A stretch of 64,000 nucleotides of DNA from Chiloscyllium plagiosum (Eukaryota): the NCBI RefSeq assembly GCF_004010195.1, contig NC_057719.1:11160507-11224506 (forward strand), written 5' to 3'. How positions within the stretch are numbered: the stretch's first letter is position 1; each line of letters opens with the position of its first letter. Under the pieces are notes generated by a model that saw nothing but the letters and a program-made list of their open reading frames with translations, was not told the origin of the DNA and ran no database searches. The translations under genes were made by a program, and so were the position numbers. Positions 3,655 through 59,154 of the stretch are shown in pieces.

Positions 3655-3819
3655 CAATCAGTGAGGTCTGCAGATGCTGGAGATCAGAGTTGAGAGTGTA
3701 TTGCTAGAAAAGCACAGCAGGTCAGGCAGCATCCGAGAAGAGCTCCAGCCCGAAACGTTGATTTTCCTGCTCCTTGGATGCTGCCTGACCTGCTGTGCTT
3801 TTCCAGCAACACACTCTCC
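3655..3819. mobile_element. Penelope-terminus-derived palindromic short element with partial hammerhead core
   Basis: Inverted arms GAAAAGCACAGCAGGTCAGGCAGCATCC / GGATGCTGCCTGACCTGCTGTGCTTTTC; centre keeps GCCCGAAACGTTG; imperfect flanking repeat ACCTATAYAT. Confidence 0.8.
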
Positions 3820-5459
3820 ACCTATACATGAGTCCCTATGCATGTACAAAGGTTGTATATACATATATGTGTTCTATGACATTATATATCCTCTCTCCAT
3901 AACATTTATAACAAATACAGTGGTTGTGCTCATTTGTAAAGTAAATAAAACAAAATTGAGTATCAGTGACATTTAATTTTGAAGAAGATTAAGTGAGTAT
4001 ATATAATTACAGTGTGATAACTATGCATTAATATGTCTTTTATAAATTCTACTGCAAAAAGGTAACAACCAGGACTGGGCTGATTTTGGATGCTTCAACA
4101 TGTGCATGCTACCATCCTTTTCTAACTGTGCAAATTCTTTAGGGGGTTATGTGGTCAAGTCCATGTGAGTTTGCATTACCATGCGGAGAGCCTTATAGAA
4201 TATAGTTTATTGCATCCTGCAGTTATTGACATGTTATAAGAATGGGTTGCCTATTACTACAGAGACTTTTGGGACAGGACCCAGTCTTGGGTCTATCTCA
4301 CATGAGGTCCCACTTTACTTTCTGATGAAATCCTCATGATATCTTCACAGTGGGTGGTATTTATTGAACGTAATCAATCATTAACCCTTTCAGGCCTGCA
4401 TACAACACATGGGATACTTCATCATTCACAATTCAACACAAGACAAAGGAATGCATGTTCTCCCTGAGCTCTTGGCCCTCTCGGTACTCCAGGAAACCCC
4501 TGACGTTTCTTAAATGCTGTGTCAGGGTGCCCAATCAAATTGGCAAAAGGATTCAAATTGATCTCCTTCAGCAGGGCTGGATTTTCTGGAGATGGATTGC
4601 CAATTCTGATTGTGTGTGCTAGTAGAGGTTTTGTCATGTGACCTCCCACCTTCACCCCTGCCCTCTGCCATTAGTGCATCCTCTGGATGAACTGCCTTCC
4701 CAGGTTTTGAGAGCTCAATGTTGGGATCAAATAGGGATTCCAAGCCCTCATGCGATGGCAATAGGGCTGGTGTGGAAACATTCCCAAGGCAGTCTCCTAA
4801 TTGGCTAACTGTAAACTTCTCATTTAATAGCAGACCATTTGGTCCCTCACGTCTGCTCTGCCATTCAGTATGATCATGGCTGATCTTCAGCTTCAAATCC
4901 ACTTTCCTGCCCAGTTCATTTGATTCTAGATCAAACAACTCTTGATTTCAGTGATAGTTATCTCAAAAATGGAGAATTCACAATCCTCTGGGTCAAAATT
5001 TCCAACTGGCTAAAGGAAGAAATCCAAGATGATTTATCTTGCTTCTTGTTATTACACTCCTAAGTTCTGGATGCCCTTTCCAGGGCAAAGAACCTCTCAT
5101 TGACCACCTTATCAAGATCTTCTCAAATCTAGGTTTCAATAAAATCACCCCTCATTCTTCTAAACTCCAGACAGTGTCAGTCTAACTTACTCAGTCTCTC
5201 ATGGTAAGACAACCCTGTCTCCCAGAAACTCATTTAATCAACTTTGTTGTACCAAAAAGGATCCTGAGTAATCCAAGATGGAGGATGGAAAAAATTGTGG
5301 CTGTAAGAGCTGTTCCTTTTTTGAGGTTTTTTTCAGTGGTGGAGCTGATTTCCTCACATTCTAGGAGCAGTAATTACTGCTTTATAAGCTGCTGCATTGT
5401 TTTGGAACTTTGGAACATCAAAAATTTCACAGTTGTAAAAACTAATCTGCTTTTCTATT

Positions 5460-5950
5460 CTCCCTACATTCCCATAGTATAATATTTCCACCACTTTGAT
5501 GCCCACTTGCTTAACCTGTCTATATCTCTTTGCAACCCCCTTGTATCTTCCTCACAATATTACATTTCCACTTAGCTTTGTATTATCAACAAACTTGGAA
5601 ATATTACTTGCAGTCTCTTTGACTAAGTCCTTAACATAGATGGTAAACAGGTGAAGGTGAGTACTGCAGATGCTGGAGATTAGAGCCAAGATTAGAGTGG
5701 TGCTGGAAAGGCACAGCAGGTCTGACAGCATCCAAGGAGCAGGAAAATCAATGTTTCGGGCAAAAACCATTCATCAGGATGGTAAACAGCAGGGGCTCAG
5801 ACACTGATCCTTGTGCTACTCCACAGCTGCCAACTCAAAAATGCTCAGTTCAACCCTACGCTCTGCTCCCTAGTCATTAACCTATTCTCCATCCATTGCT
5901 CCCAACCACATAGACTCTTACCTTATGTATTAACATTTTATGTGGTAATA
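5460..5950 (-). mobile_element. CR1 LINE RT fragment, interrupted by a PLE-derived insert
   Basis: Minus-strand translation FTIYVKDLVKETASNISKFVDNTKLSG resembles CR1 FTIYINDL...ISKFADDTKLGG. Confidence 0.75.
5651..5777 (-). mobile_element. PLE-terminus short element with degenerate hammerhead core and 12-bp TSD
   Basis: GATGGTAAACAG at 5639-5650 and 5778-5789; minus strand starts CTGATGAATGGTTTTTGCCCGAAACATTG. Confidence 0.85.
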
Positions 5951-6339
5951 TAAGGGCAGTAGGCAGACACTCAAAGTTGTCAGCCCTCCGTCCTGATTCT
6001 TGGCAGCAGGGATCAAGACGTTTAAAGGTGAACTCACTGACTTGCACATCAATTGTCAAATAGGTTGAATCAAGGTAGACTGGAATCCCTTTAGCGGGAC
6101 AGGCCTCTTCTGTCATTAATGCAGCTTCCTCTTTGAGGGAAACAGGGTCTGCAGCTTCCATGACACTCAGTCTGCGGTGGGGAGGACACTTCCATTGAGC
6201 TGACAGTGCCAGTATGTGACCAGGTTGGTCACTGCTGCAAAATGACAGCGAGGCCACCAAATCACCTCTAACTGGAGTCTCAACAATGCTAACTATTGGC
6301 AGCTACGGAGCGAGTAGCCAATCTATTTCCCTGCTCACC

Positions 6340-6640
6340 CCCAGGAATCAGCTCTGGCTCATTAAGAAAAATCAAGAGAAACAGTGGCCCTAGTATCATC
6401 TCCTGGGCAACCCCACTATATACTTTCCTCCAGTCATAAAAATACCCATTCAACACTGTGTTCTGATTCCTTCCACTCAACTTGGTATCCAATACTGTGA
6501 CTTACCCTTTTATTCCACTTTGTGGTAAGCCTGTTATATGACATTTTAACACTCAGCTTTTTGAAGTCCATGTACCTTCACATCAACTGCATAAGCTTCA
6601 TGAACCCAAGTGCAACCTCATCAAAAACATGGTAAGAGCA
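6340..6640 (-). mobile_element. Old CR1 LINE RT fragment
   Basis: Translation LNGYFYDWRKVYSGVAQEMILGPLFLLIFLNE resembles CR1 SGVPQGSVLGPLLFxIFIND. Confidence 0.7.
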
Positions 6641-9600
6641 CAGCAGCTCTCCAGGAGTTTTCATCTTCTACACAAACAAGGGACTTTGTGTGCGATATAG
6701 AAGGCAGATGGCTAAAGCAGACCAGTAAATGTCAAACATTGATACACTGCAAACTGTGACAGACGGAAAGCCACAAATGCCAAGGGAATGTTTGAGGATT
6801 GATATCAGGAGGCTGTGCTTCACACACAGAGTGAGCAATGTATCCAATAAGCTTCAGAGTCAAGTTGTGGAGGTGAAAACCTGAGATTATTTGAATAACA
6901 GATGGATGCCACGATGGAGGTGGGCTGGGGGTTGGTAAATTGGGTGAATGAGTTTGAATGAGCACACTTGGTCAAATGAATTGAGATTAGCAAGACTGTG
7001 TTGAATGGCTTTTCTCATCCGATTCGACCCTGTGATGTTTTTAATGAAAGGAGGCAGACTTTAACTTTCTGTGAAACCACTTCAAATCTCCAATTGCTAT
7101 GCCGTCAGCATTTTCTTGCTATAGATGACCATCAGTTAAATTCACTTCTAGCAAACGAGTTCCATTTAGATGCACCCACCTCCCCTAGAACTCAAGTAAA
7201 AACAAACAGCACCTTTGTTGAATCAGAGTAGAATTATTACACTATTAAGGATAATAAAATATGTAAATTATGTAAATCAAACAATTTTCTTAGGGAAATT
7301 GAGCCAATTAAACAATTCAAAGTCAGCAGATTTTATTTTTATAAGTTCAGAGAATAAAATGAGGGTGAAAATATGAAAGAATTGTGTTACATAGAGATTG
7401 CATATTCATGAAAATGTGGTTAATTAGATGTGACAAGAGCATGAAAGCATGAGGAAGGGACTCTAACTGCTGGGAATTCACTAACCACATTCTACTGTGT
7501 AAATACACCAGCCATCATGTGAGGGTCAGTATAGGGGACAAATTTAATGATGGAGTCAGGATTCTCAATGACTGCCACCAAAACTGGCAGCATACTTGAT
7601 GATCTCCATCCCAAGAGTCCTGAGCAATTAAGTCCCAAATTGTCAACAGGTCCTGATTCCAGGGCTATCGAATGCAAGGGTTGGCAATGTAGGGGAAGTG
7701 GGGGAAGTGGAGGTTGGAGGGGAGCAATTTAATTACTGCCCAGATTGATAGAAATCCAGCCTCTGACATCCAGCACTCAACTGTGCAACAACGCCTCAGA
7801 GTGCGGTGGCCACTGCTGGTAATACACTTGGGCCTTCATGGGGGAACCCTGAGTAAATGGGATAGATTAACTGTGGGGTTTGTTCTTACCATGCATCCTC
7901 CTTCCTCAGTGCCTTTGCATGAAGCCCCAACTAAGCCCCACAGTGCCTCTACTTTATTTGTGGAGCAGCGGTAACGTCCCTACCCTGGATAGGGAGACCC
8001 ATCTGCGCTCCAGAATTAAACCCCAAATTGCCGTTAGGTCCTGCTGCAATTCCTGAACAGACTGAGTAGAAAAACAGGTTAAAGAAAAATAGTTTTATTT
8101 TATGGCAAGTCCCCTGCCTGCCACAGGTGTGAAGCCCAAATTGGTCATTAACTGCCCAGAGAAGAGCATCTATTAGCATCTGGACAGGAAGGTCACACCA
8201 GACCCCCTCATCCAATCACACAGGTAATATCCTCCTCTCCTGATATGGAACTCACCTCCTGGAGGAAGGAGGGTATTCAATTTGGCCCTAGAATCTATTT
8301 CAAACCTTTGGAAAAAGACTAGTGTTTGCCCCATCTTAGACCATTTAGTAGTATGTGGTATTGGAGTAAACCAGTCAGCCAACAAACCAAGGATACATTT
8401 TTCACTTGATATTATCAACAGTGAAAAAAGGAAGTCTTGGGGTGTCACAGAAATGTTACAACAACAACTCACTTGTATTAATTAGCTCAAGGCAGCTCAC
8501 AAAGGGCCAACTGGAGAGGATCAGTCAGGGGTGGTTGAGGGGAGTTAGCTGAAGCGTTGGTCAAAAAGAGACACTTTGACAAAGTTTCAAAGCTGGAAAA
8601 AGAGTTGGGTGAAGGAATTGGGCAAGTTTGGCCAAAGTAAAAGGATTAGTGTCAAGGGGTGCTAAAAAGCTTTAAAGGTGGTCAAGATCTTGAGCATAAA
8701 GTCAAGTTTTCACAGAATCATAAAAGTGTTATGGTACAGAGGGAGGCCATTCAGCCATCTTGGTAAAGGAACCTCATTTAAACACATTATAAACACTGCT
8801 TTGCCTTGCTTTCTCTGCTTGTAGAAGCGTAAAAGCTTTTTGTTTGTTTCGACTGGTCACACATTCATCTGCAAGGAGGACCACTGGGCTTGAATGCTCA
8901 ATCACTGAAGCACAGTCAGCCAATCAGCTCCAGTCACATGGTCTCATATTCTGGCCAATCATCCTTGGGAGTTTTTCTTCGAATGTATAAACACTTTTTT
9001 CATATTTTGTTTGTAGGCAGTGAGGCGCAGCTAAAAATGGCAGCATTCTGGAAATTTCATTTGCAATGACTGGGCAGTAACAGCGTCAGGAGAGAGAAGA
9101 AAAACAAGACAGTTTATATCGATGAAGAAAGTGTTCGCCATGCATGATTAACCCTGAGGATGTGCTGTGGTATTTCTGCACCACTTCATTAATTTCCCAG
9201 AGACAACATTCTTTTTCTCTTCAATGTAGCCTTTAAAAATTACTGGGGCATCTCAAGCCAAAAAATAACACAAAACACGGATATGTATGTACGTATCTGT
9301 GCACATGTGACTTTGTGTGTGTTTCTGTGCACGTGTATATGGGTGTGCATGTTTATGGTCAGGAGTGGCATGCGAGGCTATGATGCTCTATCTGGAGCCT
9401 GAGCTGTCTAACCAATGACAATGAAGAGTACAGAGAGTGAGAGATTGGCTGAAAGACAGCACTGAATCAATAGTACTGTACAAGATGGGCCATTACTTGA
9501 AATGCCTTCGGCCTGTTGTAAAACTGTTCAGAGGTGATAGCTATAAAAGAGAAGTTACTGCAAGAAGGTATGACTGGAACTGTATACTTCTCCATGAAGA

Positions 9601-9919
9601 CCAGTGCTCCATGGCAGACTGCCAAAATGTTCTACTCCTGATCCAATCGGCATCACAGAATGATAGAAATTGACAGTACACCAGAGATGATGTTCTGCCC
9701 ATCAAGCCCGTACGAAATGAAAAGAGTGATCCTGCCTCAGTCCAATACCCTGCAGTTTACGGCACGTCTTTTCCCTCAATGTGATGAGGGGTTCTGTTTC
9801 TAAGCACAGGCTCTATATCCCCTCCACACTAGAGGTGAAAGGAATAGGCCCTACCTATCAGCTCTAATGATTATGTACACCTCAATTAAACTTCCCTCAG
9901 CTTCCTCTGTTCCAAAGAA

Positions 9920-12900
9920 CTGACTCTGATAGATACTGTCCCATACAGTTTCGCTGTCTGTTATTGCGAGATAGTGACTCATACAGCTCCCTCTGAGCTG
10001 CGACTGACAGATACTGACCCTAACTCCACCTTGTGTGCTTTTACTGAAAGATACTGACCTATACTCCTCACTCTTTACTGTTACTGATAGATACTGACCC
10101 ATACGCCTCCCTCTATTCTGTTACTGATAGACACTGACCCATACTTGCTCCCCCTGTTTTATTATTGACAGATACTGACCCATACTGCTCCTTCTTTGCT
10201 GTTACTGACCGACACTGACCCACACTGCTCCCCCATTTTGTTACTGACAGATACTAACCCATACTGTTCCTTCTGTGCTGTTGATGATCTCTGTTACTGA
10301 TAGATACTGACCCACACTGCTCCCCAAGTTTCGTTACTGACAGATACTGACACATACTGCTCCTTTTGTGCTGTTACTGACCACTGTTACTGATAGATAC
10401 TTCCATACTGCTCCCCCGTTTTGTTACTGACAGATACTGACACATACTGCTCCTTTTGTGCTGTTACTGACCACTGTTACTGATAGATACTTCCATACTG
10501 CTCCCCCGTTTTGTTACTGACAGATACTGACACATACTGCTCCTTTTGTGCTGTTACTGACCACTGTTACTGATAGATACTTCCATACTGCTCCCCCGTT
10601 TTGTTACTGACAGATACTGACACATACTGCACCCTCTGTTCTGTTCCTGACAGATACTGGCCCACACTGCTCCCTCTGAATTGTTACTGATACTGACACA
10701 TACTGCTCCCTCTGTACTATTACTGACAGATACTGGCCCATACTGCTCCTTCTGTGCTGTTACTGACCTCTATTACTGAAAGGTACTGACATATACTGCT
10801 GCTTCTGTGACTGCTCCCTCTGTACTGTTACTGACCTCTGTTACTAATAGATGTTGACAGATACTGCTTCCCCTGTTTTGTTACTGACAGATGTTGACCC
10901 ATACTGTTCCCTCTGTACTGTTACTGACAGATACTGACACATACTGCTCCTTTTGTGCTGTTACTGACCACTGTTACTGATAGATACTTCCATACTGCTC
11001 CCCCGTTTTGTTACTGACAGATACTGACACATACTGCACCCTCTGTTCTGTTCCTGACAGATACTGGCCCACACTGCTCCCTCTGAATTGTTACTGATAC
11101 TGACACATACTGCTCCCTCTGTACTATTACTGACAGATACTGGCCCATACTGCTCCTTCTGTGCTGTTACTGACCTCTATTACTGAAAGGTACTGACATA
11201 TACTGCTGCTTCTGTGTTGTTGCTGATCTCTGTAACTGACAGATACTAACCCACACTGCTCCCCCTGTTTTGTTACTGACAGATACTGGCACATACTGCA
11301 CCCTCTGTATTGTTACTGATAGATACTGACACATACTGCTCCCTCTGTATTGTTACTGACAGATACTGACCCATACTGCTCCTTCTGTGCTGTTACTGAC
11401 CTCTGATACTGATAGATACTGATCCATACTGCTCCCCCATTTTGTTACTGACAGATACTGACCCATACTGCTCCCTCTGTATTATTACTGACAGATACGA
11501 CGCATAATGCTCCCTCTGTACTGTTATTGTCAGATACTGACCCATACTGCTAACTCTATATTGTTACTATCAGATACTGACCCATGCTGATCCCCCTGTA
11601 CTGTTACTGACTGATACTGACCCATATGCTCCCTCTGAACTGTTACTGACAGATACTGACCCTTACTGCTCGCTCTGCATTGTTACAGACAGATACCGAC
11701 GATAGTGCTCCCTCTGTAATGTTACTGACAGACATGGACCCATAGTGCTCTCACCGTACTGTTAATGACAGATACTGACCCACACTGCTCCCTCTAAACT
11801 ATTACTGATAGAGACTGACCCATACACTCTACATTGTTACTGACAGGTACTGATACATACTGCTTCTTCTGTGCTGTTACTGACCTCTGTTACTGATAGA
11901 TGCTGACCCATACTGCTCCCCCATTTTGTTACTGACAGATACTGACCCATACTGCTCCCTCAGTACTGTTACTGACTGATACTGACCCATACTGCTTCCT
12001 CTGTATTGGTACTGACAGATACTGACCCATACTGTTCCTTTGTACTGTTTCGAACAGATACTGGCCCACACTGCTCTCTCTGTACTATTACTGACAGATA
12101 CTGACCCATACTGCTCCCTCAGTACTGTTACTGACAGATACTGGCCCACACTGCTCCCTCTGTACTGTTACTGACAGATACTGATCCATACTGCTCCCTC
12201 TGTACTGGTACTGACAGGAACTGACCCACATTGCTCCCTCTGTACTGTTATTGACAGATACTGACAAATAGTGCACCCTCTGTACTGTTAGTGACAGATA
12301 CTGACCCATACTGCTCCTTCTGTGCTGTTACTGACCTCTGTTACTGAAGATACTGACATATACTGCTCCTTTTATGCTGTTACTGACCTCCATTACTGAT
12401 AGATACTGACCCATACTGCTCCCCCGACTGACAAATAGTGCACCCTCTGTACTGTTAGTGACAGATACTGACCCATACTGCTCCTTCTGTGCTGTTACTG
12501 ACCTCCATTACTGATAGATACTGACCCATACTGCTCCCCCGTTTTGTTACTGACAGATACTGACCCATACTGCTCCCTCAGTACTGTTACTGACTGATAC
12601 TGACCCATACTGCTCCCTCTGTATTGTTACTGAGATATACTGACTCATACTGTTCCTAACAGATACTGACCCATACTGCTCCCTCAGTATTGTTACTGAC
12701 TGATACTGACCCATACTGCTCCCTCTGTACTGGTACTGACAGATACTGACCCATACTGCTCCCTCTGTATTGTTACTGAGATATACTGACTCATACTGTT
12801 CCCTCTGTACTGTTACTGACAGATACTGACCCATGCTGCTCCTTCTGTACTGTTCCTAACAGATACTGACCCATACTGCTCCCTCTGTATTGTTACTGAG

Positions 12901-15900
12901 ATATACTGACCCAAACTGCTCCTTCTGTATTGTGACTGAGATATACTGAATCATACTGCTCCTTCTGTACTGTTACTGACAGATACTGTTCCCTTGTACT
13001 GTTTCGAACAGATACTGGCCCACACTGATCCCTCTGTACAATTACTGATAGATACTGGAGCATACTGCTCCACTTGTACTGTTANNNNNNNNNNNNNNNN
13101 NNNNNNNNNNNNNNNNNNNNNNNNNNNNNNNNNNNNNNNNNNNNNNNNNNNNNNNNNNNNNNNNNNNNNNNNNNNNNNNNNNNNNNNNNNNNNNNNNNNN
13201 NNNNNNNNNNNNNNNNNNNNNNNNNNNNNNNNNNNNNNNNNNNNNNNNNNNNNNNNNNNNNNNNNNNNNNNNNNNNNNNNNNNNNNNNNNNNNNNNNNNN
13301 NNNNNNNNNNNNNNNNNNNNNNNNNNNNNNNNNNNNNNNNNNNNNNNNNNNNNNNNNNNNNNNNNNNNNNNNNNNNNNNNNNNNNNNNNNNNNNNNNNNN
13401 NNNNNNNNNNNNNNNNNNNNNNNNNNNNNNNNNNNNNNNNNNNNNNNNNNNNNNNNNNNNNNNNNNNNNNNNNNNNNNNNNNNNNNNNNNNNNNNNNNNN
13501 NNNNNNNNNNNNNNNNNNNNNNNNNNNNNNNNNNNNNNNNNNNNNNNNNNNNNNNNNNNNNNNNNNNNNNNNNNNNNNNNNNNNTGCTCCCTCTGTACTG
13601 TTACTGACAGATACTGACCCACACTGCTCCCCATGTCTATTAGTGACAGACACTGACCCATACTGCTCCCTCTGTGCTGTTACTGATAGATACTGACCCA
13701 TCCTGCTCCCTCTGTACTGTTACTGACAGATACTGACCCACACTGCTCCCCTTGTCTGTTACTGACAGATACTGACCCATACTGCTCCCTCTGTACTGTT
13801 ACTGATGGATACTGACCCATCCTGCTCCCTCTGTACTGTTACTGATGGATACTGACCCATACTGCTCCCTCTGTACTGTTACTGACAGATACTGACAAGC
13901 ACTGCTCCCCATGTCTGTTACTGACAGTTACTGACCCATACCGCTCCCTCTGTACTGTTACGGACAGACTCTAACCCCTTCTGCTCCCTTTATAATGTTA
14001 CTGACAGATACTGACCCATACTGTACTGTTACTGACAGTTACTGACCCATACTGCTCCCTCTGTACTGTTACTGACAGATACTGACCCATACTGCTCCCC
14101 CCTCAGTTTCTGACTGATTCTAACCCATGCTGTTCCCTCTGTAATATTACTGATAGACACTGAACTATCCTGCTCCTTCTGTGCTGTTACTGATAGATAC
14201 TGACCCATATTGCTCCTTCTGTGCTGTTACTTACAGACATTGACCCACACTGCTCCCCATGTCTCTTACTGACAGATTCTGACCCACACTGCTCCCTCTG
14301 TACTGTTGCTGATAGATACTGACTCACACTGCTCCATCTGTACTGTGACTAACAGATACTGACCCACACTGCTCCGTCTGTACTGTTACAGACACATACT
14401 GAGCCATACTGCTCTCCCTGTCTGTTACTGACAGATACTGACCCACACTGCTCCCCATGTCTGCTACTGACAGATACTGACCCATCCTGCTCCTTGTGCT
14501 GTTACTGACAGTTACTGACCCATACTGCTCCCTCTGTACTGTTACTGACAGATACTGACCTACACTGCTCCCCTTGTCTGTTACTGATAGATACTGACCC
14601 ATACTGCTCCTTCTGTGCTGTTACTGATAGATACTGACCCACACTGCTCCATCTCTGTACTGTTACTGACAGACACTGACCCAGACTGCTCCCTCTGTAC
14701 TGTTACTGATAGATACTGAGCCACACTGCTCCCCTTGTCTGTTACTGACAGATGTTGACCCATACTGCTCCATCTGTACTGTTACTGACAGATACTGACC
14801 CACACTGCTCCCCTTCTCTGTTACTGACAGATACTGACCCATACTGCTCTCTCTGTACTGTTACTGATAGATACTGACCCATCCTGCTCCCTCTGTACTG
14901 TTACTGACAGATACTGACCCACACTGCTCCCCTTGTCTGTTACTGACAGATGTTGACCCATACTGCTCCATCTGTACTGTTACTGACAGATACTGACCCA
15001 CACTGCTCCCCTTGTCTGTTACTGACAGATGTTGACCCATACTGCTCCATCTGTACTGTTACTGACAGATACTGACCCACACTGCTCCCCTTGTCTGTTA
15101 CTGACAGATGTTGACCCATACTGCTCCATCTGTACTGTTACTGACAGATACTGACCCACACTGCTCCCCATGTCTGCTACTGACAGATACTGACCCATCC
15201 TGCTCCTTGTGCTGTTACTGACAGTTACTGACCCATACTGCTCCCTCTGTACTGTTACTGACAGATACTGACCCATACTGCTCCTTCTGTGCTGTTACTG
15301 ACACATACTGACCCATACTGCTCCTTCTGTGCTGTTACTGACAGATACTGAACCACACTGCTCCCCAGGTCTATTACTGATAGACACTGAACCATCCTGC
15401 TCCCTCTGTACTGTTACTGACACATACTGACCCATATTGCTCCTTCTGTGCTGTTACTGACACATACTGACCCATATTGCTCCTTCTGTGCTGTTACTGA
15501 CACATACTGACCCATATTGCTCCTTCTGTGCTGTTACTGACAGATACTGAACCACACTGCTCCCGAGGTCTATTACTGATAGACACTGAACCATCCTGCT
15601 CCCTCTGTACTGTTACTGACAGATACTGACCCATACTGCTCCTTCTGTGCTGTTACTGACACATACTGACCCATATTGCTCCTTCTGTGCTATTACTGAC
15701 AGACATTGACCCACACTGCTCCCCATGTCTCTTACTGACAGATTCTGACCCACACTGCTCCCTCTGTACTGTTGCTGATAGATACTGACTCACACTGCTC
15801 CGTCTGTACTGTGACTAACAGATACTGACCCATACTGCTCCGTCTGTACTATTACTAATAGATACTGACCCATACTGCTCCCTCTATATCGTTACTGACA

Positions 15901-16025
15901 AATACTGAAGCATACTACTCACTCTCTATTGTTACTGACTGATAATGACCCATACTGCTCCCTCTGTACTGTTCCTGACAGATACTGACCCATACCCCTC
16001 CTTCTGTACTAATACTGATAGTACT
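9920..16025. repeat. ~6 kb satellite, 40-bp monomer TGTTACTGACAGATACTGACCCATACTGCTCCCTCTGTAC with shorter and longer variants; spans an assembly gap
   Basis: Continuous tandem copies on both sides of the N run. The monomer is built from 10-bp subunits (NNNTACTGAC). Higher-order periods of 90, 407 and 79 bp are visible. Confidence 0.97.
13085..13584. other. Assembly gap (500 N) inside the satellite
   Basis: N run. Confidence 1.
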
Positions 16026-20326: not shown

Positions 20327-20530
20327 GAAAGTGAGGTCTGCAGATGCTGGAGATCAGAGCTGGAAATGTGTTGCTGGAAAAGCGCAGCAGGTCAGGCAGC
20401 ATCCAGGGAACAGGAGAATCGACGTTTCGGGCATAAGCCCTTCTTCCTGAAGAAGGGCTTATGCCCGAAACGTCGATTCTCCTGTTCCCTGGATGCTGCC
20501 TGACCTGCTGCGCTTTTCCAGCAACACATT
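20327..20530. mobile_element. PLE-terminus-derived element with perfect 86-bp inverted repeat, hammerhead core and 16-bp TSD
   Basis: Arms 20361-20446 and 20449-20534 (the last 4 nt overlap the TSD); TCCATCAGAATGGGCA at 20311-20326 and 20531-20546. Confidence 0.92.
20444..20478 (+). ncRNA. Minimal type-I hammerhead ribozyme motif (PLE type)
   Basis: TC-CTGAAGA-A-GGGC-TTAT-GCCC-GAAA-CG-TC-GA; conserved core, 4-bp helix II, palindromic ACGT in place of helix III. Confidence 0.75.
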
Positions 20531-35775: not shown

Positions 35776-36640
35776 TAGAGTCACAGAGTCATAGAATCAT
35801 AAGCACGGAAACATTCTCTTCAACTCAACCAGTTCATGCTGAACATAATCCCAAACTAAATTAGTCCCACCTGCCTGCTCCTGGCCCATATCCCTCCAAA
35901 CCTTTCCTATCCATGTAGTTATCCAAATACCTTTTAAATGTTGTAATTGTACCCATACCATCACTTCCTCAGCAAGTTCATTCCTCACACACAAACTACC
36001 TTCTATCTTCATGTCTTTTTTAAATCTCTCTCATCTCATCTTAAAAATGCTCCCTCTCATCTTGAAATTCCCCATGCTAGGGAAAAGACAACTACCATTA
36101 ATCCTTTCTATATCCCTCATTATTTTATAAACTTCCATAAGGTCACCTCTCAATCTCCTACGCGCCAATGAAAAAAGTCCCAGCCTATCCAGCTTTTCTT
36201 TATAACTCAACCCTTCCATACCCGGCAACATCCTGGTAAATGTCTTCTGACCTCTCTCCAGATTAATAATATTCTTCCTATAGCAGGGCGATCAGAAATG
36301 GTCACTACTCCAGAAAAGGCCTCATCAATATCTTGTACAACCTCAACATGACTTCCCAACTCCTATACTCAAAAGAATGAGCAATGCAGGCAAGCATGCT
36401 AAAAATCTTTTGACCACCCTATATGTGATGCAAACTTCAAAGAATTATGTACCGAAAACCCTTAGATCCCTCTGTTCTCCAACACTACCCAGGGTCGAAA
36501 AGTGTGGCACTGGAAAAGCACAGCAGGTCAGGCAGCATTCGAGGAGCAAGAGAATCGATGTTTAGCACCGCATTTTCTGACTCCAACTCTCCAGCATCTG
36601 CAGTTTTCACTTTCTTCTAAAAGCCCTAGCATTATAAGTC
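35776..36640 (-). mobile_element. CR1 LINE 3' fragment with a PLE-terminus insert at ~36493-36616
   Basis: MLPGMEGLSYKEKLDRLGLFSLARRRLRGDLMEVYKIMR; tail (CTATGA/CTGTGA)n. Confidence 0.9.
36493..36616. mobile_element. Rearranged PLE-terminus short element
   Basis: GGAAAAGCACAGCAGGTCAGGCAGCATTCGAGGAGCAAGAGAATCGATGTTT joined to inverted CTCCAGCATCTGCAGTTTTCACTTTC. Confidence 0.75.
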
Positions 36641-42797: not shown

Positions 42798-42869
42798 CTG
42801 AAAAATGTGTTGCTGGAAAAGTACAGCAGGTCAGGCAGCATCCAAGGAGCAGGAGAATCGACGTTTCGG
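42798..42869 (-). mobile_element. Truncated PLE-terminus insert with 8-bp TSD
   Basis: GCACCCAG at 42790-42797 and 42870-42877; minus strand starts CCGAAACGTCG. Confidence 0.85.
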
Positions 42870-42995
42870 GCACCCAGACAGTATGCTTTCAATGGTGCAT
42901 CTGTAAAAGTTGGTGAGGGACATTGTGGACATGCCGAATTTCCTGAGCTGCCTGAGGAAGAAGAGATGTGGTATGGCTTCTTGACCACTGCATCT

Positions 42996-44522: not shown

Positions 44523-44692
44523 GAGTCAAACAGGCTGCCTTTGTCCTGGATGCTGTTGAGCTTCACAAATATTGCTGGAGCTGCATTCCTCCATGCATGT
44601 GGAACACATTCCATCACACTCCTGACGTGCAACCTCTAGGTAATGGATTGTACAGTGTCTTGTTGTTTGTTATTGTAATAGAGTTCTTTATT

Positions 44693-45172
44693 CTCAACTA
44701 GGAGAAAGTATGGGCTGCAGATGCTGGAGATCAGAGTTGAGAGTGTGGTGCTCGAAAACCACAGGTCAGGTAGTATCCAAGGATCAGCAGAATCGACATT
44801 TGGGCATAAGCCCTTCATCAGTAATTGGCTGAAGAGCTTCAGGGCAGAGGAGGTGACCTGGGGTGTGCAGAGAGAGATAGAGAGAGAGAGAGACTCACTG
44901 AGATACTTGTAGAGGGCGGAGGGGAGGAGGAGAACTTCTTCAAGGTAGGCATCCTTGGAAGAGGCCTCACAGTAAGGTTAAAATCAACTAGGAGAAAGTG
45001 AGAACTTCAGATGCTGGAGATCAGGGTCGAGAGTATGGTGCTGGAAAAGCACAGCAGGTCAGGCAGCATCCGAGGAGCCGGAGACTCGGCTTTTTAGGCA
45101 TGCCTGAAACATTGACACTCCTGCCCCTCGGATGCTGCCTGACCTGCTGTGCTTTTCCAGCACCACACACTC
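44693..45172 (-). mobile_element. Penelope-like element remnant with two tandem terminal repeats, the second folded back
   Basis: TCAACTAGGAGAAAGT...GATGCTGGAGATCAG at ~44693 and ~44984, separated by ~160 bp with (AG)n; degenerate core CTGATGAAGGGCTTATGCCCAAATGTC on the minus strand. Confidence 0.8.
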
Positions 45173-46999
45173 AACTTCTTCATTCTCAACATACAATTCC
45201 AGATTGCGGGGCACATATGACCCATGGTACTGTTCTGACCTTTGGGCCAGGAGGTCTGTCTTCAAGTCCCACCTGTCCTAGACATATATCATAACATGTC
45301 TGAACAGGTTGATTAGAAATATCATCAGTTCCATAATGTTACAGGGATGACAACCAGCATGAGAGGAAGAGGAGGGAGAGAGGGGGGACGCAATGTGTGT
45401 GCTTGTAACCACAGAAATCTTTGTTGGGACACTTCTTTATGCATCGACTGTTTAAAGTGAAATGTGCCTTATCATTTCACTTACCTTCACTTATTAATGT
45501 TTGAGTTAGGTTGATTGTAGTTAGCGTGTTCCAATAAAGGTTTTCAGTTTCCAATAAAAGTGAGATCTTGTCCCTTCACTTTCTATCCTTTGACTATGCG
45601 GGAATTCAAATATTTTCAGTCTCATGTGGTATCTATAACGCAATATACATTTATTGTCTATTGCCCCTGTAGAATTTCTCCCAAGGTTTCTTCACAACAG
45701 AATCCTGGAGATTAATCTAAAATTCCTGGAGACTCCTGTAGATTTGGATGGTTCGCAACTCTAGACATGATGGAAGTTCCAAAAGATACATTAAACAGCC
45801 TCGTCTTTAGGAAGTCAAAGGTTGTGTTTTTTCTGGGTTTTCTTCCTAGTAAAGACTCTCCAGTTTATTGATGATCTTAATTCAAGCGGGTAGAAAAGGG
45901 TGGAAATGAATAAGATTTCAAACTGTTGTTAGATAAGACAAGAAGTATTACGAGAGCTTGAAATATTGGAACATGAGCCCTCAGTGTTAGTATTAGCAGT
46001 AACAAAGATCTTCTCCCTTTCACGTCTCCATGTTTGTTAGATCAAAGAGTGAAAAATTCCTTTTGAGCCTTGGTTTTAGTTTGTAAAACACTTACTGATC
46101 TGTTGATGTGAAATTATAGAAGTCTATTACATTCTGTCTCAGATTGATTGTCCTTTGCAATTTTTAAAAATTATTTTATGGGATATGGGTGTCACTCACA
46201 AGGGGCACCATTAATTGCCCATCTCCCTTTAATAGGGTGTCTTGCTATAGGCCATTTCAAACTCACTCCTTTGGGGAAGATGATGGTGTAATGGTAATGT
46301 TGCTAGACTAATAATGCAGAGGCTCAGGTGAAAGTTTTAGGGACATGGATTCCAATCCCACTATGGCAGAAGCTGTTTTGACCTGACCTATCCTACAAAT
46401 GACTCCAGCAATGTGATTGACATAAAACTGCCTGCTGGGCAACTGGGGATGGCCAGCAACTCCCATATTCCATGAATAAATAAAAAGGAATTTCAGAGGG
46501 CATTTTAGAGTTAACCACTTTATTGAGAGTCTGGAGTCACATGTAGGCTGGGCCAGGCATGGACAGCAGATTTCCTTCCCTAATAACATTTTTAAAAATC
46601 TGTTTCACTAATGAAAATTAAGGATAGACTCATGGTTACCCTAACTGATGATAATGTCATCAAATTTTTCTCATTTTTTTCCCCCAAGATCTTGAATCTT
46701 TTTGAAAACTAGCAATGTATGGTTATACATTTACCATAAATATAAAACAGTTTGTTACTGCACATCAAAATAATGAACTTATAGGGTGAAGTAAGTGAAA
46801 AATAAATGGGTTAAGAAACCTTGTTACGGTCGGTGATGAAAAAAGTACCATTTCCCACACCACCAAACTCAATGGGCTCTGGAAATCTTAATGCATGTGT
46901 GCCTCTAACCAATAAGTTATATCAAGCATTTAGGACCTCTGTTGGACTGGATTGAGATTCAGTGAGTTTCACCAGAGGGAAGAATGGGTGAGATTTCCC

Positions 47000-47610: not shown

Positions 47611-47627
47611 TAGTAGTACGCTCTAAC

Positions 47628-48398: not shown

Positions 48399-48691
48399 AT
48401 GGAAACAGGCCCTTCGGCCCAACAAGTCCACACCGATCCTCCGAAGCGCAACCCACCCAGACCCATTCCCCTACACTTACCCCTTCACCTAACATTACGG
48501 GCAATTTAGCATGGCCAACTCACCTAACCTGCACAACTTTGGCGTGTGGGAGGAAACCGGACCACCAGGATGAAACCCACGCAGACACGGGGAGAATGTG
48601 CAAACTCCACACAGAGAGTCACCTTAGGCAGGAATTGAACCCCGGTCTCTGGCGCTGTGAGGCAGCAGTGCTAACGATGCCACCGTGCCGC
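48399..48691 (-). mobile_element. HE1-like SINE
   Basis: Reverse-complement copy with A and B boxes. Confidence 0.9.
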
Positions 48692-49409
48692 ACACTAATT
48701 ATGTCCATCAAAGTGTTAGTAATCTTTGGAATTCTCTGTTCCAAAGGATTGTGAATGATCCATCAATAAATACATTTAAGACCTAGAGAGGCAGACATTT
48801 GGTCTCTAAGGCCATCAGGGATATGGGGAGCATGAGGGAAAGCCTGAGATTCAGACATGATCATATTGGAATGACAGAGCAGAGTCAATAGGCTATACTG
48901 CTTAGGCCTGCCCAGAATTTTTATGATCCTGATTATACAACACAGAATGAAGACATTTAGCCCATCCTGCCTCTGCTAACTATTTGAAAGAACCATCCAA
49001 GTAATTCTGCTCCTCACTCTTTCCTCATAACTTTCCAATATATTTCCTCTTGAAGTAATTATCAACTTCCCTTTTGAAATTCACTCTTGAATCTGCTCTC
49101 ATCTCTCATTCAGACATTCCATATCATAATAATTCATTAGGTAGAAAAATAATCCTTACTTTCCCTCTGGTTCTTCAGGTAATCATTTAAAATTGAGATC
49201 TTCTAATTATTGACCACATCTTAACAATCATCAACCCCAAGCCCCACATGGAAACAGTCACTTCTCATTTTCACCATCAATGCCGTTCATCTATTTGCAG
49301 TGTTTGAAAGTTAGTCGGGCAGCCTCTAACTGGTTCTGGATCAGTGGTGCTGGAAGGGCACAGCAGTTCAGGCAGCATCCGAGGACAGGCAAAGTCCGAG
49401 GACAGGCAA

Positions 49410-49445
49410 AATCGACGTTTCGGGCAAAAGCCCTTCATCAGGAAT
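49410..49445 (-). ncRNA. Minimal type-I hammerhead ribozyme motif with intact core, ADCK1-sense orientation
   Basis: ATTC-CTGATGA-A-GGGC-TTTT-GCCC-GAAA-CG-TC-GATT on the minus strand. Confidence 0.78.
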
Positions 49446-49454
49446 AAAGGCAGA

Positions 49455-50070
49455 NNNNNNNNNNNNNNNNNNNNNNNNNNNNNNNNNNNNNNNNNNNNNN
49501 NNNNNNNNNNNNNNNNNNNNNNNNNNNNNNNNNNNNNNNNNNNNNNNNNNNNNNNNNNNNNNNNNNNNNNNNNNNNNNNNNNNNNNNNNNNNNNNNNNNN
49601 NNNNNNNNNNNNNNNNNNNNNNNNNNNNNNNNNNNNNNNNNNNNNNNNNNNNNNNNNNNNNNNNNNNNNNNNNNNNNNNNNNNNNNNNNNNNNNNNNNNN
49701 NNNNNNNNNNNNNNNNNNNNNNNNNNNNNNNNNNNNNNNNNNNNNNNNNNNNNNNNNNNNNNNNNNNNNNNNNNNNNNNNNNNNNNNNNNNNNNNNNNNN
49801 NNNNNNNNNNNNNNNNNNNNNNNNNNNNNNNNNNNNNNNNNNNNNNNNNNNNNNNNNNNNNNNNNNNNNNNNNNNNNNNNNNNNNNNNNNNNNNNNNNNN
49901 NNNNNNNNNNNNNNNNNNNNNNNNNNNNNNNNNNNNNNNNNNNNNNNNNNNNNNNNNNNNNNNNNNNNNNNNNNNNNNNNNNNNNNNNNNNNNNNNNNNN
50001 NNNNNNNNNNNNNNNNNNNNNNNNNNNNNNNNNNNNNNNNNNNNNNNNNNNNNNNNNNNNNNNNNNNNNN
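49455..50070. other. Assembly gap (616 N)
   Basis: N run. Confidence 1.
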
Positions 50071-50619
50071 GTAGGGTGGAAGGTGTGCACCAGGGGCGTT
50101 CTGTCCTTGTTGCGGTTGGAGGGGTTGGGTCTGAGGGCGGAGGTGCGGGATGTAGACAAGATGCGTTGGAGGGCAGCTTTAACGACATGGGAAGGGAGAT
50201 TGCGGTCTCTAGAGAAGGAGGCCATCTGGTGTGTTCTGTGGTGGAACCGGTCCTCCTGGGAGCAGATACGGCGGAGGCGGAGGAATTGGGAATACGGGAT
50301 GGCATTTTTGCAAGAGATAGGGTGGGAAGAGGTGTAATCCAGGTAGCTGTGGGAGTCGGTGGGTTTGTAGAAAATGTCAGTGTCTAACTGGTGTTGAGCT
50401 CAACTCTACAGTTTTGGATGGTGCAGGGTCTTTTCCCTGTTTCAGGAGAGGGAGCTGAGACAAGTTCACCAACTGCTCCCCATGCCCCAGGTTTGGCTGT
50501 TCCTGCTCCTGCTCTTGACTGCCATCTACTGACTTGTGCCGGTAAATATATTCATGCAGAACACAGAATCTTCCATTCTTAAACAGATTGCTGATGTTCA
50601 TTCATTAACAACAAAGGGA

Positions 50620-50980: not shown

Positions 50981-51299
50981 AACAATGCACCACATAGAGA
51001 CCACGAACTGTGGCATTACGCCTGTTAAGTGCCAGCATCTTCAGGGATGGAGGGGAGAAATTGGTGGCAAGGAGCTGGGAGAGCAGGGTGGGGCCTGAAG
51101 GAGAGACAGCCTAAGTTGCTTGTAGTGAAGCCCACTTTCAAATCAGCCCTCAGGTACCTTAGAACCTCTTTCATATTTTTATGCACAATTATTTATTTAA
51201 GCATATTTACCCCTCAGGACCAGGGAACAAAGATTTTGTCTGGTAACACACAGACTGCCCTCAGCGAAGTATTTGACATCTGTCATTTGGGTTCCCCAA

Positions 51300-52682
51300 G
51301 TCCATCTTCTGCAGCTATACTGGCACCAGTTCCTCTGCTACATCGATGACTGTATCCATGCTACCTCATGCTCCCACGAAGAGGTTGAACAGTTCACCAA
51401 CTTCACAAACACTATCCACCCCGACCTCAAGTTCACCTGGACCATCTCGGACACCTCCCTCCCCTTCTTGGATCTCACCATTTCCATTTCTGGCAACCAA
51501 CTCAACCCTACATACCCATCAACTCCCACAGCTACCTGGACTACACCTCCTCCCAGCCTGCCTCCTGTAAAAACACTATCCCTTATTCCAAATTCCTCCA
51601 CCTCCATTGCATCTGCTCCCAGGAGGACCAATTCCACCGTAGAACATCCCAATGGCCTCCTTCTTCAAAGACTGCTATTTGCTTCCTGCGCCCTGCAACG
51701 ACGCCCTGCAGTGCATCTCCTCCACTCCCTGAACCTCCGCCCTTGAACTCCACCCCTCCAATCGCAACAAGAACAGAACACCCCTGGTCCTCACCTTCCA
51801 CTCCACCAACCACCGGATACATCACATCATCCTCCGCCATTTCTGACATCTACAAACAGACTCCACCACTAGGGATAAATTTCCCTTCCCCCTGTCCACC
51901 TGCATTTCGGAGAGACCATTTCCTCCACGACTCCCTTGTCAGGTCCACGATTCCCACCAACCCACCTTCCTCCCGGCACCTTCCCTTGCCACTGTAGGAA
52001 GTGCAAACCTACACCCACAAATCCCATCTCACCTTCAACCAAGGCCCCAAAGGATCCTTCCACAGAAATTTACCTGTACTTCCACACATGTCAACTATGG
52101 CATCCATTGCACCTGATGTGGTCTCCTCCAGACTGGGGAGACAGGACGCCAGCTTGTGGATCATTTCAGAGAACTTCTCTGGGACACCCAAACTAACCAA
52201 CCCCACTGCCCTGTGGCTGAACACTTTAACTCCCCCTCCCACTCCGCTAAAGACATGCAGGTCCTGGGCCTCCTCCATCACCAAACCCTAACCACGCCTG
52301 GAGGAAGGATGGCTCATCTTCCGCCTTAGGACCCTCCAACCACATGGGATCAATGGGGATTTCACCAGATTCCCCATTTCCCCCCCCATCACCTTATCCT
52401 AGTCCCAACCTTCCAACTCAGCACCACCCTCTTGAAGGGTCCTACCTGTCCATCTTCCTTCCTACCCATATCCTCCACCCTCCACTCTGACCTATCACTT
52501 TCAGCCCCACCTTCATCTACCTAGCACTTTCCTAACTAACTTCACCCCAGCCCCATTCCATTCCTCCATTCCCCTCCCATTTATCTCTCAATTCCTTGGG
52601 CCCACAAGCCTCATTCCTGATGAAGGCCCATAACGTCGACTCTCCTGCTCCTTGGATGCTGCTTTTCCAGCGCCACACTCTT
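51300..52682 (+). mobile_element. Penelope-like retroelement, 5'-truncated: RT C-terminus, GIY-YIG domain, 3' UTR and degenerate hammerhead terminus
   Basis: YIDD at 51339-51350, HPDLKFTWTISDTSLPFLDL, FTCTSTHVNYGIHCT.CGLLQTGETGR GIY-YIG remnant, LIFRLRTLQPHGING, then CCTGATGAAGGCCCATAACGTCG at 52616. Confidence 0.93.
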
Positions 52683-53504
52683 CGATCCATTCTACCCAAT
52701 GCCCCACCTGCCCCAAAGTACACAGGCTGCCCAACAGCTGGAAACCAGAGGACATTTTAAACAAACAAAAAACATATATTTTTCACCAGCCTCGGGCTCG
52801 AAATCCCATTTCTGTGTTCATTCTCCCCACTCGATCATAAGAGACGGTGAGCGAGTTAAGTGAATGGGTTAAATGCAGCCCATATAACGAAGCAGTGAAT
52901 TGAAGGGGGTGCTCTTACTGTGAAATGTTAGTGAGCCTGCCCAGCTGCCTTGCTGAAATCAGTGAAGTGTGACTGCAGCTCCAGTACATCAAATAAATTA
53001 AGGCGGATCAATGACTAAAGACCATCTAAAGGTGAATTTCTTTCTCTTTCTCCCTGAAAACATCCTTCCCATAGCAGCCATAAAATAGAGGATGCAGCGA
53101 GTGGATGAAGCACCTTGCCCTCCCCTAACTCCGAGATTTGGGAGAAAAAATCTGTCAGAAGGTAATGATGTGAAACAGCGTAATTTGCAGGTTCTGCCCT
53201 TGCCCTTCAGAACCTCAGCGTCCCTGCCCTCTGCTTGCACACAGAAAGAAACCAAACACAAACAAAAAGCGCTTGAATATTTCTCAGATAGTTATGCTGG
53301 CTGGCCTGTGGGTCTCTCTCTGACCCTGCTAACTGGGGCTGATTGCTGATTCCCTCCTTACACCCACATGCCAGGCACAATCGACTTCCCTATAGGCAGA
53401 GCGGAACAGACAGTTTGCTCTCAATGCCATTTTTTTAATGTACAGAGTGCAGCATTTGCAAACGATTCTTGTAACTAAGTCTCTCGGTGGGTAAAGCCCA
53501 CTCT

Positions 53505-53507
<3 letters not shown>

Positions 53508-53554
<47 letters not shown>
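53508..53554. repeat. (AT)n(AC)n compound microsatellite
   Basis: Directly visible. Confidence 0.95.
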
Positions 53555-53864
53555 GTGGGCATGTGCGTACCAGTCTAGCATGCATAGTAATCACATTTTA
53601 TTTATATACATATTTATGTAACATTTCTGTGTGTGTGTGTTTGTTTGTACCTTTGTGCATGTCATAGTGATGTACAGCATGGAATCAGACCCTTTGGTCC
53701 ACCATGTCCATGCCAACCAGATATCCTAACCTCTAAACCCTTCCTATTCATATACCCATCCAGTTGACTTTTATTGTAATTGTATCAGCCTCAGCATACT
53801 AAAAAAGGGTGGAGAGATGGGCCCGACATCTGTGTCCTCACCTCCAGAGAATCCTGGCTCTTGT

Positions 53865-54175
53865 GGGCGGCACGGTAGCACAGTGGTTAGCACTGCTGCC
53901 TCACAGCGCCAGAAACCCGGGTTCAATTCCCGCCTCAGGCGACTGACTGTGTGGAGTTTGCACGTTCTCCCCGTGTCTGTGTGGGTTTCCTCCGGGTGCT
54001 CCGGTTTCCTCCAATGATTCAAAGATGTGCAGGTCAGGTGAATTGGCCATGCTAAATTGCCTGTAGTGTTAGGTAAGGGGTAAATGTAGGGGTATGGGTG
54101 GGTTGTGCTTCGGCGGGTCGGTGTGGACTTGTTGGGCCGAAGGGCCTGTTTCCACACTGTAATGTAATCTAATCT
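53865..54175 (+). mobile_element. HE1-like SINE, young
   Basis: Near-identical to 2406-2718. Confidence 0.93.
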
Positions 54176-56264: not shown

Positions 56265-56300
56265 AGAATGAAGAAGATCAAGTGCAAGTCTCCACTTTAC

Positions 56301-57470: not shown

Positions 57471-57614
57471 GAAATGGAGGTACCGGTGTCGGACTGGGGT
57501 AAACAAAGTTAAAACTCACACAACATCGGGTGATAGTCCAACAGTTTTATTTGGAAGTACAGCTTTCGGAGCACTGTTCCTTCCTGAAGAAATGAGTTAC
57601 CTGATGAAGTTACC
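57471..57614 (-). mobile_element. Second PLE-terminus family with hammerhead-like remnant, rearranged
   Basis: Minus strand GAAGGAACAGTGCTCCGAAAGCT...; plus strand carries CCTGAAGA and CCTGATGAAG pieces directly adjacent. Confidence 0.6.
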
Positions 57615-57619
57615 TGGCG

Positions 57620-58128
57620 TTTATCAGAAACATGTTATGAAACTTGAAAGAGTTCAGAAACGATTTACAAGGATGTTGCCAGGTTTGGAGGATTTGAGCT
57701 ATAGGGAGAGGTTGAATAGGCTGGGGCTATTTTCCTTAGAGCGTCAGAGGCTGAGGCGGTGACCTCATAGAGGTTTATAAAATCATGAGGGGTATGGATA
57801 GGATAAACAGACAAAGTCTGGGGTGGTGAGTCCAGAACTAGAGGGCATAGGTTTAGGGTGAGAAAGGAAAGATATAAAAGGGACCTAAGGGCAGCTTTTT
57901 CACGCAGAGGGTGGTGCGTGAATGAATGAACTGCCAGAGGAAGCAGTAGAGGCTGGTACTAATAAAACATTTAAAAGGCATCTGGATGGGCACATGAATA
58001 GGACGGGCTTAGAGGGATTTGGGCCAAATGCTGGCAAATGGGACTAGATTAGTCTAGGATTCTAGTCAGCATGGTCGAGCTGGACCGATGGGTCTGTTTC
58101 TGTGCTGTACATCTCTTTGACTCTATGA
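57620..58128 (+). mobile_element. CR1/HER1-type LINE 3' fragment
   Basis: YQKHVMKLERVQKRFTRMLPGLEDLSYRERLNRLG; tail. Confidence 0.93.
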
Positions 58129-58713
58129 TGAAGACAGTGGATTCTCCAGCCTCTTGAAGGAATTAGGAAAGGTCAGCAGTAAACATCAGGCTTGCCAAGG
58201 AATTTAAAAATAAAATTGTGCAGCCCCTTATCGTGTTACTGGTTTCCATGCAACTTAGCCTACTTTTTGGGAATGCAGCGACTTTTAGCCTGGCAAATGC
58301 AACAGCCATGTTCTATCAGAGACAAGCTGGTATACAGCGAGCTCAAATGAGAAGCATCTCATTTCATTTCAGTTGGCCATTAGGTAAAGGAGGCATATTC
58401 GTCTGGACCATCTAAAACAAAATGGAAAATCTGAACTGAAAACAGAAAACAAACAGCAAGTCTGACAACATTGTTGGAGAGGTCAATTAAGATTCCTAAT
58501 ATGCTATTTTTACTTATGACCTTGGATGGAGAAAAAATGGATTTTTGTTTTCAATTTGAAAGCTCTACTTTTTTCATATATAAAAGATCAGAATGCCATT
58601 TTTGAACAATGAATTCAAAATAGCAACTCCAAGAACTCGTGATTTTCACTAAATGATTGGCAAGTTACCCACAGAGATCATCGTTAAGTTGTTTGTTGAC
58701 TTGAGCTTTACTA

Positions 58714-58841
58714 GGCAAAAGTGAAGACTGCAGATGCTGGAAACCAGAGTCTTGATTAGAGTGGTGCTGGAAAAGCACAGGAGGTCAGACAGCATCCGAG
58801 GAGTAGGAAAATCAACGTTTCGAGCAAAAGCCCTTCATCAG
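58714..58841 (-). mobile_element. PLE-terminus short element with hammerhead core and 11-bp TSD
   Basis: GAGCTTTACTA at 58703-58713 and 58842-58852; minus strand CTGATGA-A-GGGC-TTTT-GCTC-GAAA-CG-TT. Confidence 0.9.
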
Positions 58842-59154
58842 GAGCTTTACTACTTAAAGGCAAAGAGAGAGAGAGAGAGAAAAAAAAAGATAGGGAGGTT
58901 ACCAGAAAAAGGATCATTCCAAGAGAAGAGATGCACAATAGTTGAGGTGCTGTTATTAGTAGTCCCCAAGCAGACAGCGCTGGGGAGCAGTCAGAAATCA
59001 ATGGGAAGACAATTACAGAAGCAGAAGCTGGAGCTGTCAGAGAAGAAGACATCCTGTAGCAATGTTGAAGAAATGAGCATTTATTTCCAGCCTGTAATTA
59101 TTTCCAGGCTCTACAAATCATAGCTTTGGGATCTTCACAAACCACTGAAGAAAT

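Follow-up and report, generated by a model that had tools for sequence, protein, structure and literature searches.

Short hammerhead-bearing repeats of Chiloscyllium plagiosum are probably abortive reverse transcription products of a Penelope-like retrotransposon

Introduction

A stretch of 64,000 nt of the Chiloscyllium plagiosum genome (contig NC_057719.1, 11160507-11224506, from an assembly of 3.56 Gb; hereafter "the window") contains a dispersed short sequence with a hammerhead ribozyme motif. An initial annotation of this DNA had derived the sequence from Penelope-like elements (PLEs) and had interpreted its copies as a non-autonomous family of their own, resembling short interspersed elements (SINEs) or retrozymes. 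The copies were analyzed in the window and in a genome sample of 140 evenly spaced 10-kb stretches of the large scaffolds (1,353,922 non-N bases, 1.35 Mb). Element positions are counted on the sense strand, with the first C of the CUGANGA box as 0; on this scale, cleavage is predicted between +27 and +28. Each oriented copy of the sequence within an insertion is called an arm, and the short insertions are called stubs.

Results

Copies of the element in the window

Family sequence was present at all ten coordinates of the initial annotation (3655, 5651, 20327, 36493, 42798, 44693, 44984, 49337, 52611 and 58714), but these represented only nine insertions: a single 17-bp duplication encloses both 44693 and 44984, and about 150 nt of PLE 5' body connects the two. 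Hammerheads were mostly on the minus strand. Four of the nine insertions (3655, 20327, 36493, 44984) contained head-to-head inverted arms, absent from the initial annotation. The motif itself was confirmed as a hammerhead of the minimal type-I class, in which helix III is a palindrome of 2 bp; it includes the CUGANGA and GAAA boxes, helix II, the UH triplet and helix I. The descriptor proposed for it matched exactly at 20447 (plus strand) and 49441 (minus strand), but with one mismatch at 58841 (minus) and two at 20448 (minus); these were the four matches within two mismatches in the window, vs. 0/100 in shuffled controls. An intact motif, defined as core boxes plus helices I-III, was found in 3 of the 13 arms scored (20447, 49441, 58841). 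The CUGA box was absent from 3655, 36493, 42798 and 44984, and the hammerheads of 5651, 44693 and 52611 were damaged.

Three of the insertions were head-to-head pairs, and the direct flanking repeats claimed earlier were present at two of them. The pair at 3655..3819 consisted of a tailed minus arm (about +40 to +120) and an untailed plus arm (to +89), lacked the CUGA box, and was flanked by a 10-bp duplication with one mismatch (3645-3654 / 3820-3829). A near-perfect fold-back pair occupied 20327..20530: its plus arm had an intact hammerhead (20447-20474) and the short end, its minus arm started at about +2 and was tailed, and its duplication was 16 bp long (20311-20326 / 20531-20546). At 36489..36619, a minus arm (+21 to +95) was followed by a short plus arm ending in the tail; the hammerhead was absent, and no convincing flanking duplication was found here or at 52611.

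Single stubs, all on the minus strand, were located at 5651..5777, 42798..42869 and 58714..58841. The first ran from about -2 to the tail end, kept the core boxes with helices II and III broken, and had a 12-bp duplication (5639-5650 / 5778-5789). The second started at about +15, inside helix II, and had the short 3' end; the 8-bp repeat flanking it (42790-42797 / 42870-42877) was within the length range expected by chance. The third, also from about -2 to the tail end, carried an intact hammerhead (58814-58841) with one G-U pair and a GUU triplet, and was flanked by an 11-bp duplication (58703-58713 / 58842-58852).

The composite insertion at 44693..45176 was made up of an inverted arm, a pseudo-LTR (pLTR), the PLE 5' body piece and a second pLTR. 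The plus arm (45100-45174) was joined to a minus pLTR (45101-44984) that continued into the PLE 5' body (44983-44833); the second minus pLTR (44825-44693) started at about -4 and had a damaged GAAA box. The duplication of the whole (44682-44698 / 45174-45190) had two mismatches in its 17 bp.

Two copies had been described as ending PLE coding remnants. This was confirmed for 52611, the terminus of a 5'-truncated, decayed PLE (51298..52691, plus strand; model positions -1343 to +96) comprising the 3' part of the reverse transcriptase (RT) and the endonuclease region, with a 7-nt deletion in helix II of its hammerhead (52617, plus strand). For 49337 the link can only be deduced: the terminus at 49337..49454 (minus strand; intact hammerhead 49414-49441, short end) has its upstream part hidden by an N gap (49455-50070), beyond which lies RT-region sequence, a minus-strand coding remnant at 50071..50387 (model positions -1125 to -809) that probably belongs to the same insertion.

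An eleventh family copy was seen at the right edge of the window (63829-64000, continuing into positions 1-80 of the neighbouring stretch), formed by a short piece resembling PLE 5' body, about 115 nt of 3' region, and a tailed terminus without hammerhead. An old, divergent PLE fragment from the endonuclease/3' region was located at 22-288 (minus strand), and no terminus was found beside it.

The source element

The derivation from a PLE was upheld. The same segment of 90-135 nt, including the hammerhead, the start of the open reading frame (ORF) and an optional tail of 35-45 nt, forms both ends of the full-length element. This arrangement was seen in a decayed full-length partial tandem with a unit of 3501 bp (sampled locus L216), in the order hammerhead, tail, ORF with RT-like and GIY-YIG-like stretches, 3' region, hammerhead and tail. 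The order RT then GIY-YIG and pLTRs that include the ORF start, both characteristic of such PLEs, were seen in this locus. Related loci gave Pfam matches to RVT_1 (E=6e-9, L114) and to GIY-YIG (22.0 bits, just under the cut-off of 22.6, L094). Locus L114 had also been considered as a full-length element and was rejected, its upstream copy being a separate solo within a long interspersed element (LINE). The open frame of the PLE appears to start at about +46 and to cross the tail, and a 109-aa piece of the coding remnant in the window gave 51,041 first-look candidates in the genome.

From its domains and pLTR structure, the source is assigned to an abundant 3.5-kb endonuclease-bearing (EN+) Penelope-like retrotransposon of the Penelope/Poseidon type. 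On the same sequence evidence, the "tiny element" is the pLTR, made up of the PLE leader and the first 13-29 codons. A leader and an ORF start combined in this way in a pLTR have been described for other PLEs (PMC3846280, PMC11167929).

Abundance and structure of the insertions in the genome

A profile built from natural copies detected 264 arms in the genome sample, of which 239 were kept after removal of 25 divergent or very short ones. They formed 189 insertions, 1 per 7.2 kb, or about 480,000 if extrapolated. The density of about one copy per 6 kb reported for the window therefore holds genome-wide and is not a local feature. The exact 29-nt core pattern was counted in the whole genome 22,388 times, vs. 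22,860 predicted from the sample. There were 72 short singles, 58 short pairs, 43 long singles, 9 long pairs and 7 insertions cut by gaps or edges; short stubs were 130 of the 182 classifiable insertions. The 3' ends were bimodal (about +75-98 and +125-132), and 51 of 57 two-arm pairs combined one tailed with one untailed arm. Fifty-two distinct junction pairs were counted among the 57 head-to-head pairs, suggesting that such pairs are built afresh each time. One sampled copy (L006:1631-1760) was directly followed by degenerate telomere-like repeats.

Target-site duplications were evaluated in 169 of the 189 insertions (20 were left out due to gaps or edges), with shifted positions as controls and a threshold of at least 10 bp. 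They were detected in 40 of 55 short pairs, 23 of 70 short singles, 4 of 9 long pairs and 3 of 35 long singles (5/169 in the shifted controls). The claim that stubs were inserted as separate events was thereby supported.

The hammerhead motif in the genome

The descriptor found 79 matches in the genome sample and none in 10 shuffles. Intact motifs were present in 53 of the 239 arms and in 52 of the 189 insertions. An Rfam scan (E<=1) matched no hammerhead model and gave only hairpin-driven microRNA matches below the gathering score. In the predicted minimum-energy fold of the monomer, helix II was kept but the hammerhead core was not formed; the hammerhead dimer was not the state of lowest energy in either free folding or cofolding, and these predictions are uninformative on activity. 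Between subfamilies, loop II and N7 vary but stem II is kept (the core boxes are fixed by the descriptor), a pattern that fits selection in the source elements.

The initial annotation expected a core better conserved than its flanks. This was not seen for changes after insertion: comparing arm with arm, 13 of 213 core positions and 168 of 2235 flank positions had changed (p=0.58). A raw comparison of core and flank (1.2% vs. 4.8%) was set aside because alignment ends, base composition and subfamily sites bias it. The hammerhead is likely to be maintained in the source PLEs and to be a passenger in the stubs.

A second family of minimal hammerheads, which differs in stem II and has a helix III of GC, accounted for 10 of the 79 descriptor matches in the sample and presumably belongs to another PLE family; a possible truncated copy of it lies near 57560-57584 in the window.

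Position of the 5' ends

Random truncation would give a continuous distribution of lengths, an outcome that the initial annotation had itself raised, but the 5' ends were found to pile up just upstream of the core. Among 227 uncensored arms of the 239, 97 started at -14..+5 (52 of them at -6..-1), only 1 at -36..-15, 50 further upstream and 79 beyond +5. The rate of ends per nt was 0.084 at -6..-1 vs. 0.004 upstream, about 20 times higher (52 seen vs. 2.5 expected), and unpaired arms alone gave 21 ends at -6..-1 vs. 1.2 expected. After dropping 9 arms from duplicated loci, the same edge (-14..+5) was counted by hand in 10 of 23 pLTRs continuing into the ORF, and in 13 of 20 composite joints where the pLTR follows a broken 5' body. 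The sequence before -4 was non-PLE in 37 of 40 loci inspected by eye.

The sequence at the edge fits an initiator consensus, with the A at -4. The pLTR of Drosophila Penelope holds an internal TATA-less promoter (PMC2377424). The pile-up is more suggestive of run-off on the RNA of the PLE itself than of an independent element. It was not found described in the literature searched, which did not extend to subscription papers and supplements; Fig. S2 of PMC11167929 may be relevant here. Some loose ends of polyA reads, at -7 and -4, were not counted as evidence: -7 is the edge of the reference copy itself, and -4 may reflect subfamily differences.

Other repeats in the window

About 6 kb (9900-16025) consisted of a 40-bp minisatellite with higher-order variants and a 500-N gap within it. 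Copies of a dispersed repeat about 300 bp long, 77-95% similar to one another, were located at 2404-2703, 43081-43316, 48464-48675, 53863-54162 and 59153-59452; we take it to be SINE-like, with a tRNA-like head. Two inverted LINE 3' fragments (19215-19764 and 24896-25445; 550 bp, 94% complementary, 5.1 kb apart), presumably CR1/L2-like, and an RT frame of 300 aa (24664-25566) were also observed.

Discussion

Origin of the stubs

The copies are the PLE leader/pLTR inserted separately, and are probably abortive products of the reverse transcriptase of the PLE itself and not a separate mobile family. PLE transcription would start at the initiator-like motif, at about -4, and the PLE enzyme would begin cDNA synthesis inside the RNA, using either of the two sites whose positions define the tail. 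If it began in the first pLTR of the mRNA, it would reach the 5' end of the RNA and run off (or stop earlier) after about 90-135 nt, giving a stub, while a start in the downstream pLTR would give an ordinary long 5'-truncated copy. One run-off cDNA would yield a solo, and two cDNAs, one per start site and target strand, a head-to-head pair; template jumps would generate composites such as 44693-45176. Run-off at the first pLTR would explain why lone pLTRs outnumber longer copies. The PLE of an anole cuts both strands in vitro and has two internal start sites that define the tail; RNA beyond these sites is required, and the hammerhead is dispensable (PMC11167929). By analogy, stubs, which lack the downstream RNA required by the anole enzyme, are likely to be dead-end copies.

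Several observations weigh against this interpretation. The 5' edge is spread over about -14..+5 instead of falling on a single base. A pile-up of read starts was sought in 3,491 polyA reads on the element and not found, so the start at -4 is one that we infer from genomic ends. The signature of a cap-derived G is unproven: G was more frequent than A at -5 (1150 vs. 882; expected ratio about 0.70), the control position -6 was confounded, one subfamily having G at that site (2834 vs. 1023), and the G at -5 lies within the target duplication in at least 3 of 20 loci. When copies were compared with the column majorities, 28 core mismatches were counted vs. 45 expected from base-matched flanks, in short and long copies alike, a shortfall that may be caused by leftover subfamily variation in the flanks. 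The lineage test described below relied on an alignment of 130 nt with about 5% divergence and has little power for small secondary lineages. Finally, junctions at the predicted cut were 3-5 times commoner than at control positions.

A possible independent family

Stubs might instead be a SINE- or retrozyme-like family, in which an internal promoter drives transcription of some solos, whose RNA is processed by the hammerhead and copied again by the PLE enzyme acting in trans. The prevalence of stubs among the classifiable insertions, their duplications and discrete 5' ends, and the presence of the element in polyA reads agree with such a family; the Penelope pLTR has an internal promoter (PMC2377424) and retrozymes derive from pLTRs (bioRxiv 10.64898/2026.07.22.740005). 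It is nevertheless improbable, since no lineage of stubs was detected. In a tree of 135 copies (44 long), the label long/short changed 35 times vs. 37.4 in shuffled trees, with 18% of the shuffles as low; nearest neighbours shared the label at chance level (p=0.65), the distance from short to long copies (0.051) was similar to that between short copies (0.053), and long and short copies occurred in all five sequence groups. The ribozyme was mostly broken, an intact one being missing from 137 of the 189 insertions, and the core was not protected after insertion.

Tandem arrays of short units, head-to-tail with a ribozyme in each, were not present in the 1.35-Mb sample. Of the 17 cases of same-strand neighbours within 1 kb, 2 had two intact cores and neither was a short-unit array. 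A targeted search found a single multi-unit array (L136:899-1907, also in L138, L140, L142 and L153), with 3-4 head-to-tail units of about 330-370 bp comprising pLTR and 5' body, three units on one of the five contigs and four on others, and most cores damaged. It was rejected as a retrozyme family, being one locus in several copies whose flanks are shared at 98-100%; it could be the start of a retrozyme array, or an assembly or segmental duplicate. The RNA data came from about 2% of one polyA single-cell run, a library type that would miss circles and very short RNAs: in these reads neither starts nor ends piled up, and 97% of the 3,491 element reads continued into unlike flanks, on both strands. 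No RNA polymerase III head (tRNA, 5S or 7SL) was matched in Rfam, where no dedicated search was made, and the whole stub aligns to the PLE terminus.

Possible cleavage by the hammerhead

Template ends could also be made by hammerhead cleavage, stubs then being copies of ribozyme-processed RNA, which we consider very improbable. The conserved stem II and the variable loop II and N7 described above agree with this, and junctions at +28 were in excess genome-wide: 378, vs. 78 at +36 and 205 for +29 and +30 together (split about half each, roughly 105, as counted in the first 100 rows), the excess over +29 being about threefold after correction for dinucleotide frequency. However, the start of most stubs lies upstream of the cut, which means that they were copied from uncut RNA, and only 1 of the 227 sample arms started at +28. 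By eye, 18 of 30 loci with the +28 pattern were fold-back joins, 9 of them one recurrent join with a 2-nt overlap supplied by the complementarity of helix I; the others were 5 simple solos, 4 point mutants and 3 deletions or complex cases. Being mostly such joins, the excess does not show cleavage; microhomology and cut templates would both be predicted to produce it. Read ends did not pile up in the polyA run, and the ribozyme was not needed in vitro (PMC11167929). A combined interpretation, with the pile-up at -6..-1 marking the RNA start and the +28 excess marking a minority of templates cut in vivo, would turn the junctions of some half a million insertions into a fossil map of PLE replication in the germ line of a vertebrate; this is possible but rather doubtful.

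Possible random truncation

The least probable alternative, that stubs are merely the short end of ordinary random 5' truncation, has in its favour the continuum of 5' ends in long copies (about 0.004 per nt), the 79 of 227 arms starting downstream of +5 and the view of single motifs as probably truncated PLEs (PMC4209133), but as a sole explanation it is contradicted by the roughly 20-fold rate at -6..-1, the near-empty zone just upstream and the non-PLE sequence before -4 in the inspected loci, and a missing upstream reference does not account for the pile-up either, because all sequence groups have PLE-attached copies.

Comparison with known systems

Cervera & De la Pena (2014, PMC4209133) reported minimal hammerheads that are mostly single and dispersed, some of them paired closely on opposite strands; they regarded these as probable truncated PLEs and found the activity of minimal hammerheads to be low even as dimers. 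The shark motif resembles these metazoan PLE hammerheads in its core boxes, the extra base before helix II and the palindromic 15.2-16.2 pair. It differs in a helix II of 4 bp and in a copy number far above the 4,000-9,000 motifs of coelacanth and Xenopus; the text of that paper gives no junction map.

Poseidon PAc of Anolis carolinensis (Frangieh et al. 2024, PMC11167929) shares with the shark element a hammerhead at the pLTR-ORF junction, a two-site tail, the cutting of both target strands (as proposed above for the shark) and the lack of RNA-seq reads ending at the cut site. The PAc ORF starts inside stem II, whereas the shark frame appears to start at about +46, and neither run-off stubs nor a pile-up of 5' ends is described in the searched text of that paper (its supplementary Fig. 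S2 may bear on this). Insertions of EN+ PLEs (PMC3846280, PMC8557442) are similar in the inverted 5'-truncated copy beside the 5' end, the one-sided tail of 30-40 bp, the short duplications and the solo pLTRs. In the shark, by contrast, the minimal form dominates and solos often have duplications; solos without target-site duplications were ascribed to recombination or deletion in PMC3846280.

Non-LTR retrozymes are defined by head-to-tail repeats, a ribozyme per unit and circular RNA (PMC7229834; bioRxiv 10.64898/2026.07.22.740005). The shark copies are like them in being non-coding and pLTR-related and in having a type-I hammerhead, and dispersed monomers of retrozymes exist; unlike them, the shark units are single or inverted, do not extend from cut to cut, and mostly have no intact core.

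Conclusions

A family as abundant as this one allows both the replication of PLEs and the cutting of RNA in vivo by minimal hammerheads to be tested by counting junctions. The counts speak for templates that were not cut and for run-off at a fixed start of the RNA, and extend the internal initiation known in vitro to genomic products. In genomes of this kind, a single minimal hammerhead should not be taken for a retrozyme. The elements are of a known kind, and the distribution of their 5' ends is a modest, testable addition to the mechanism of PLEs.

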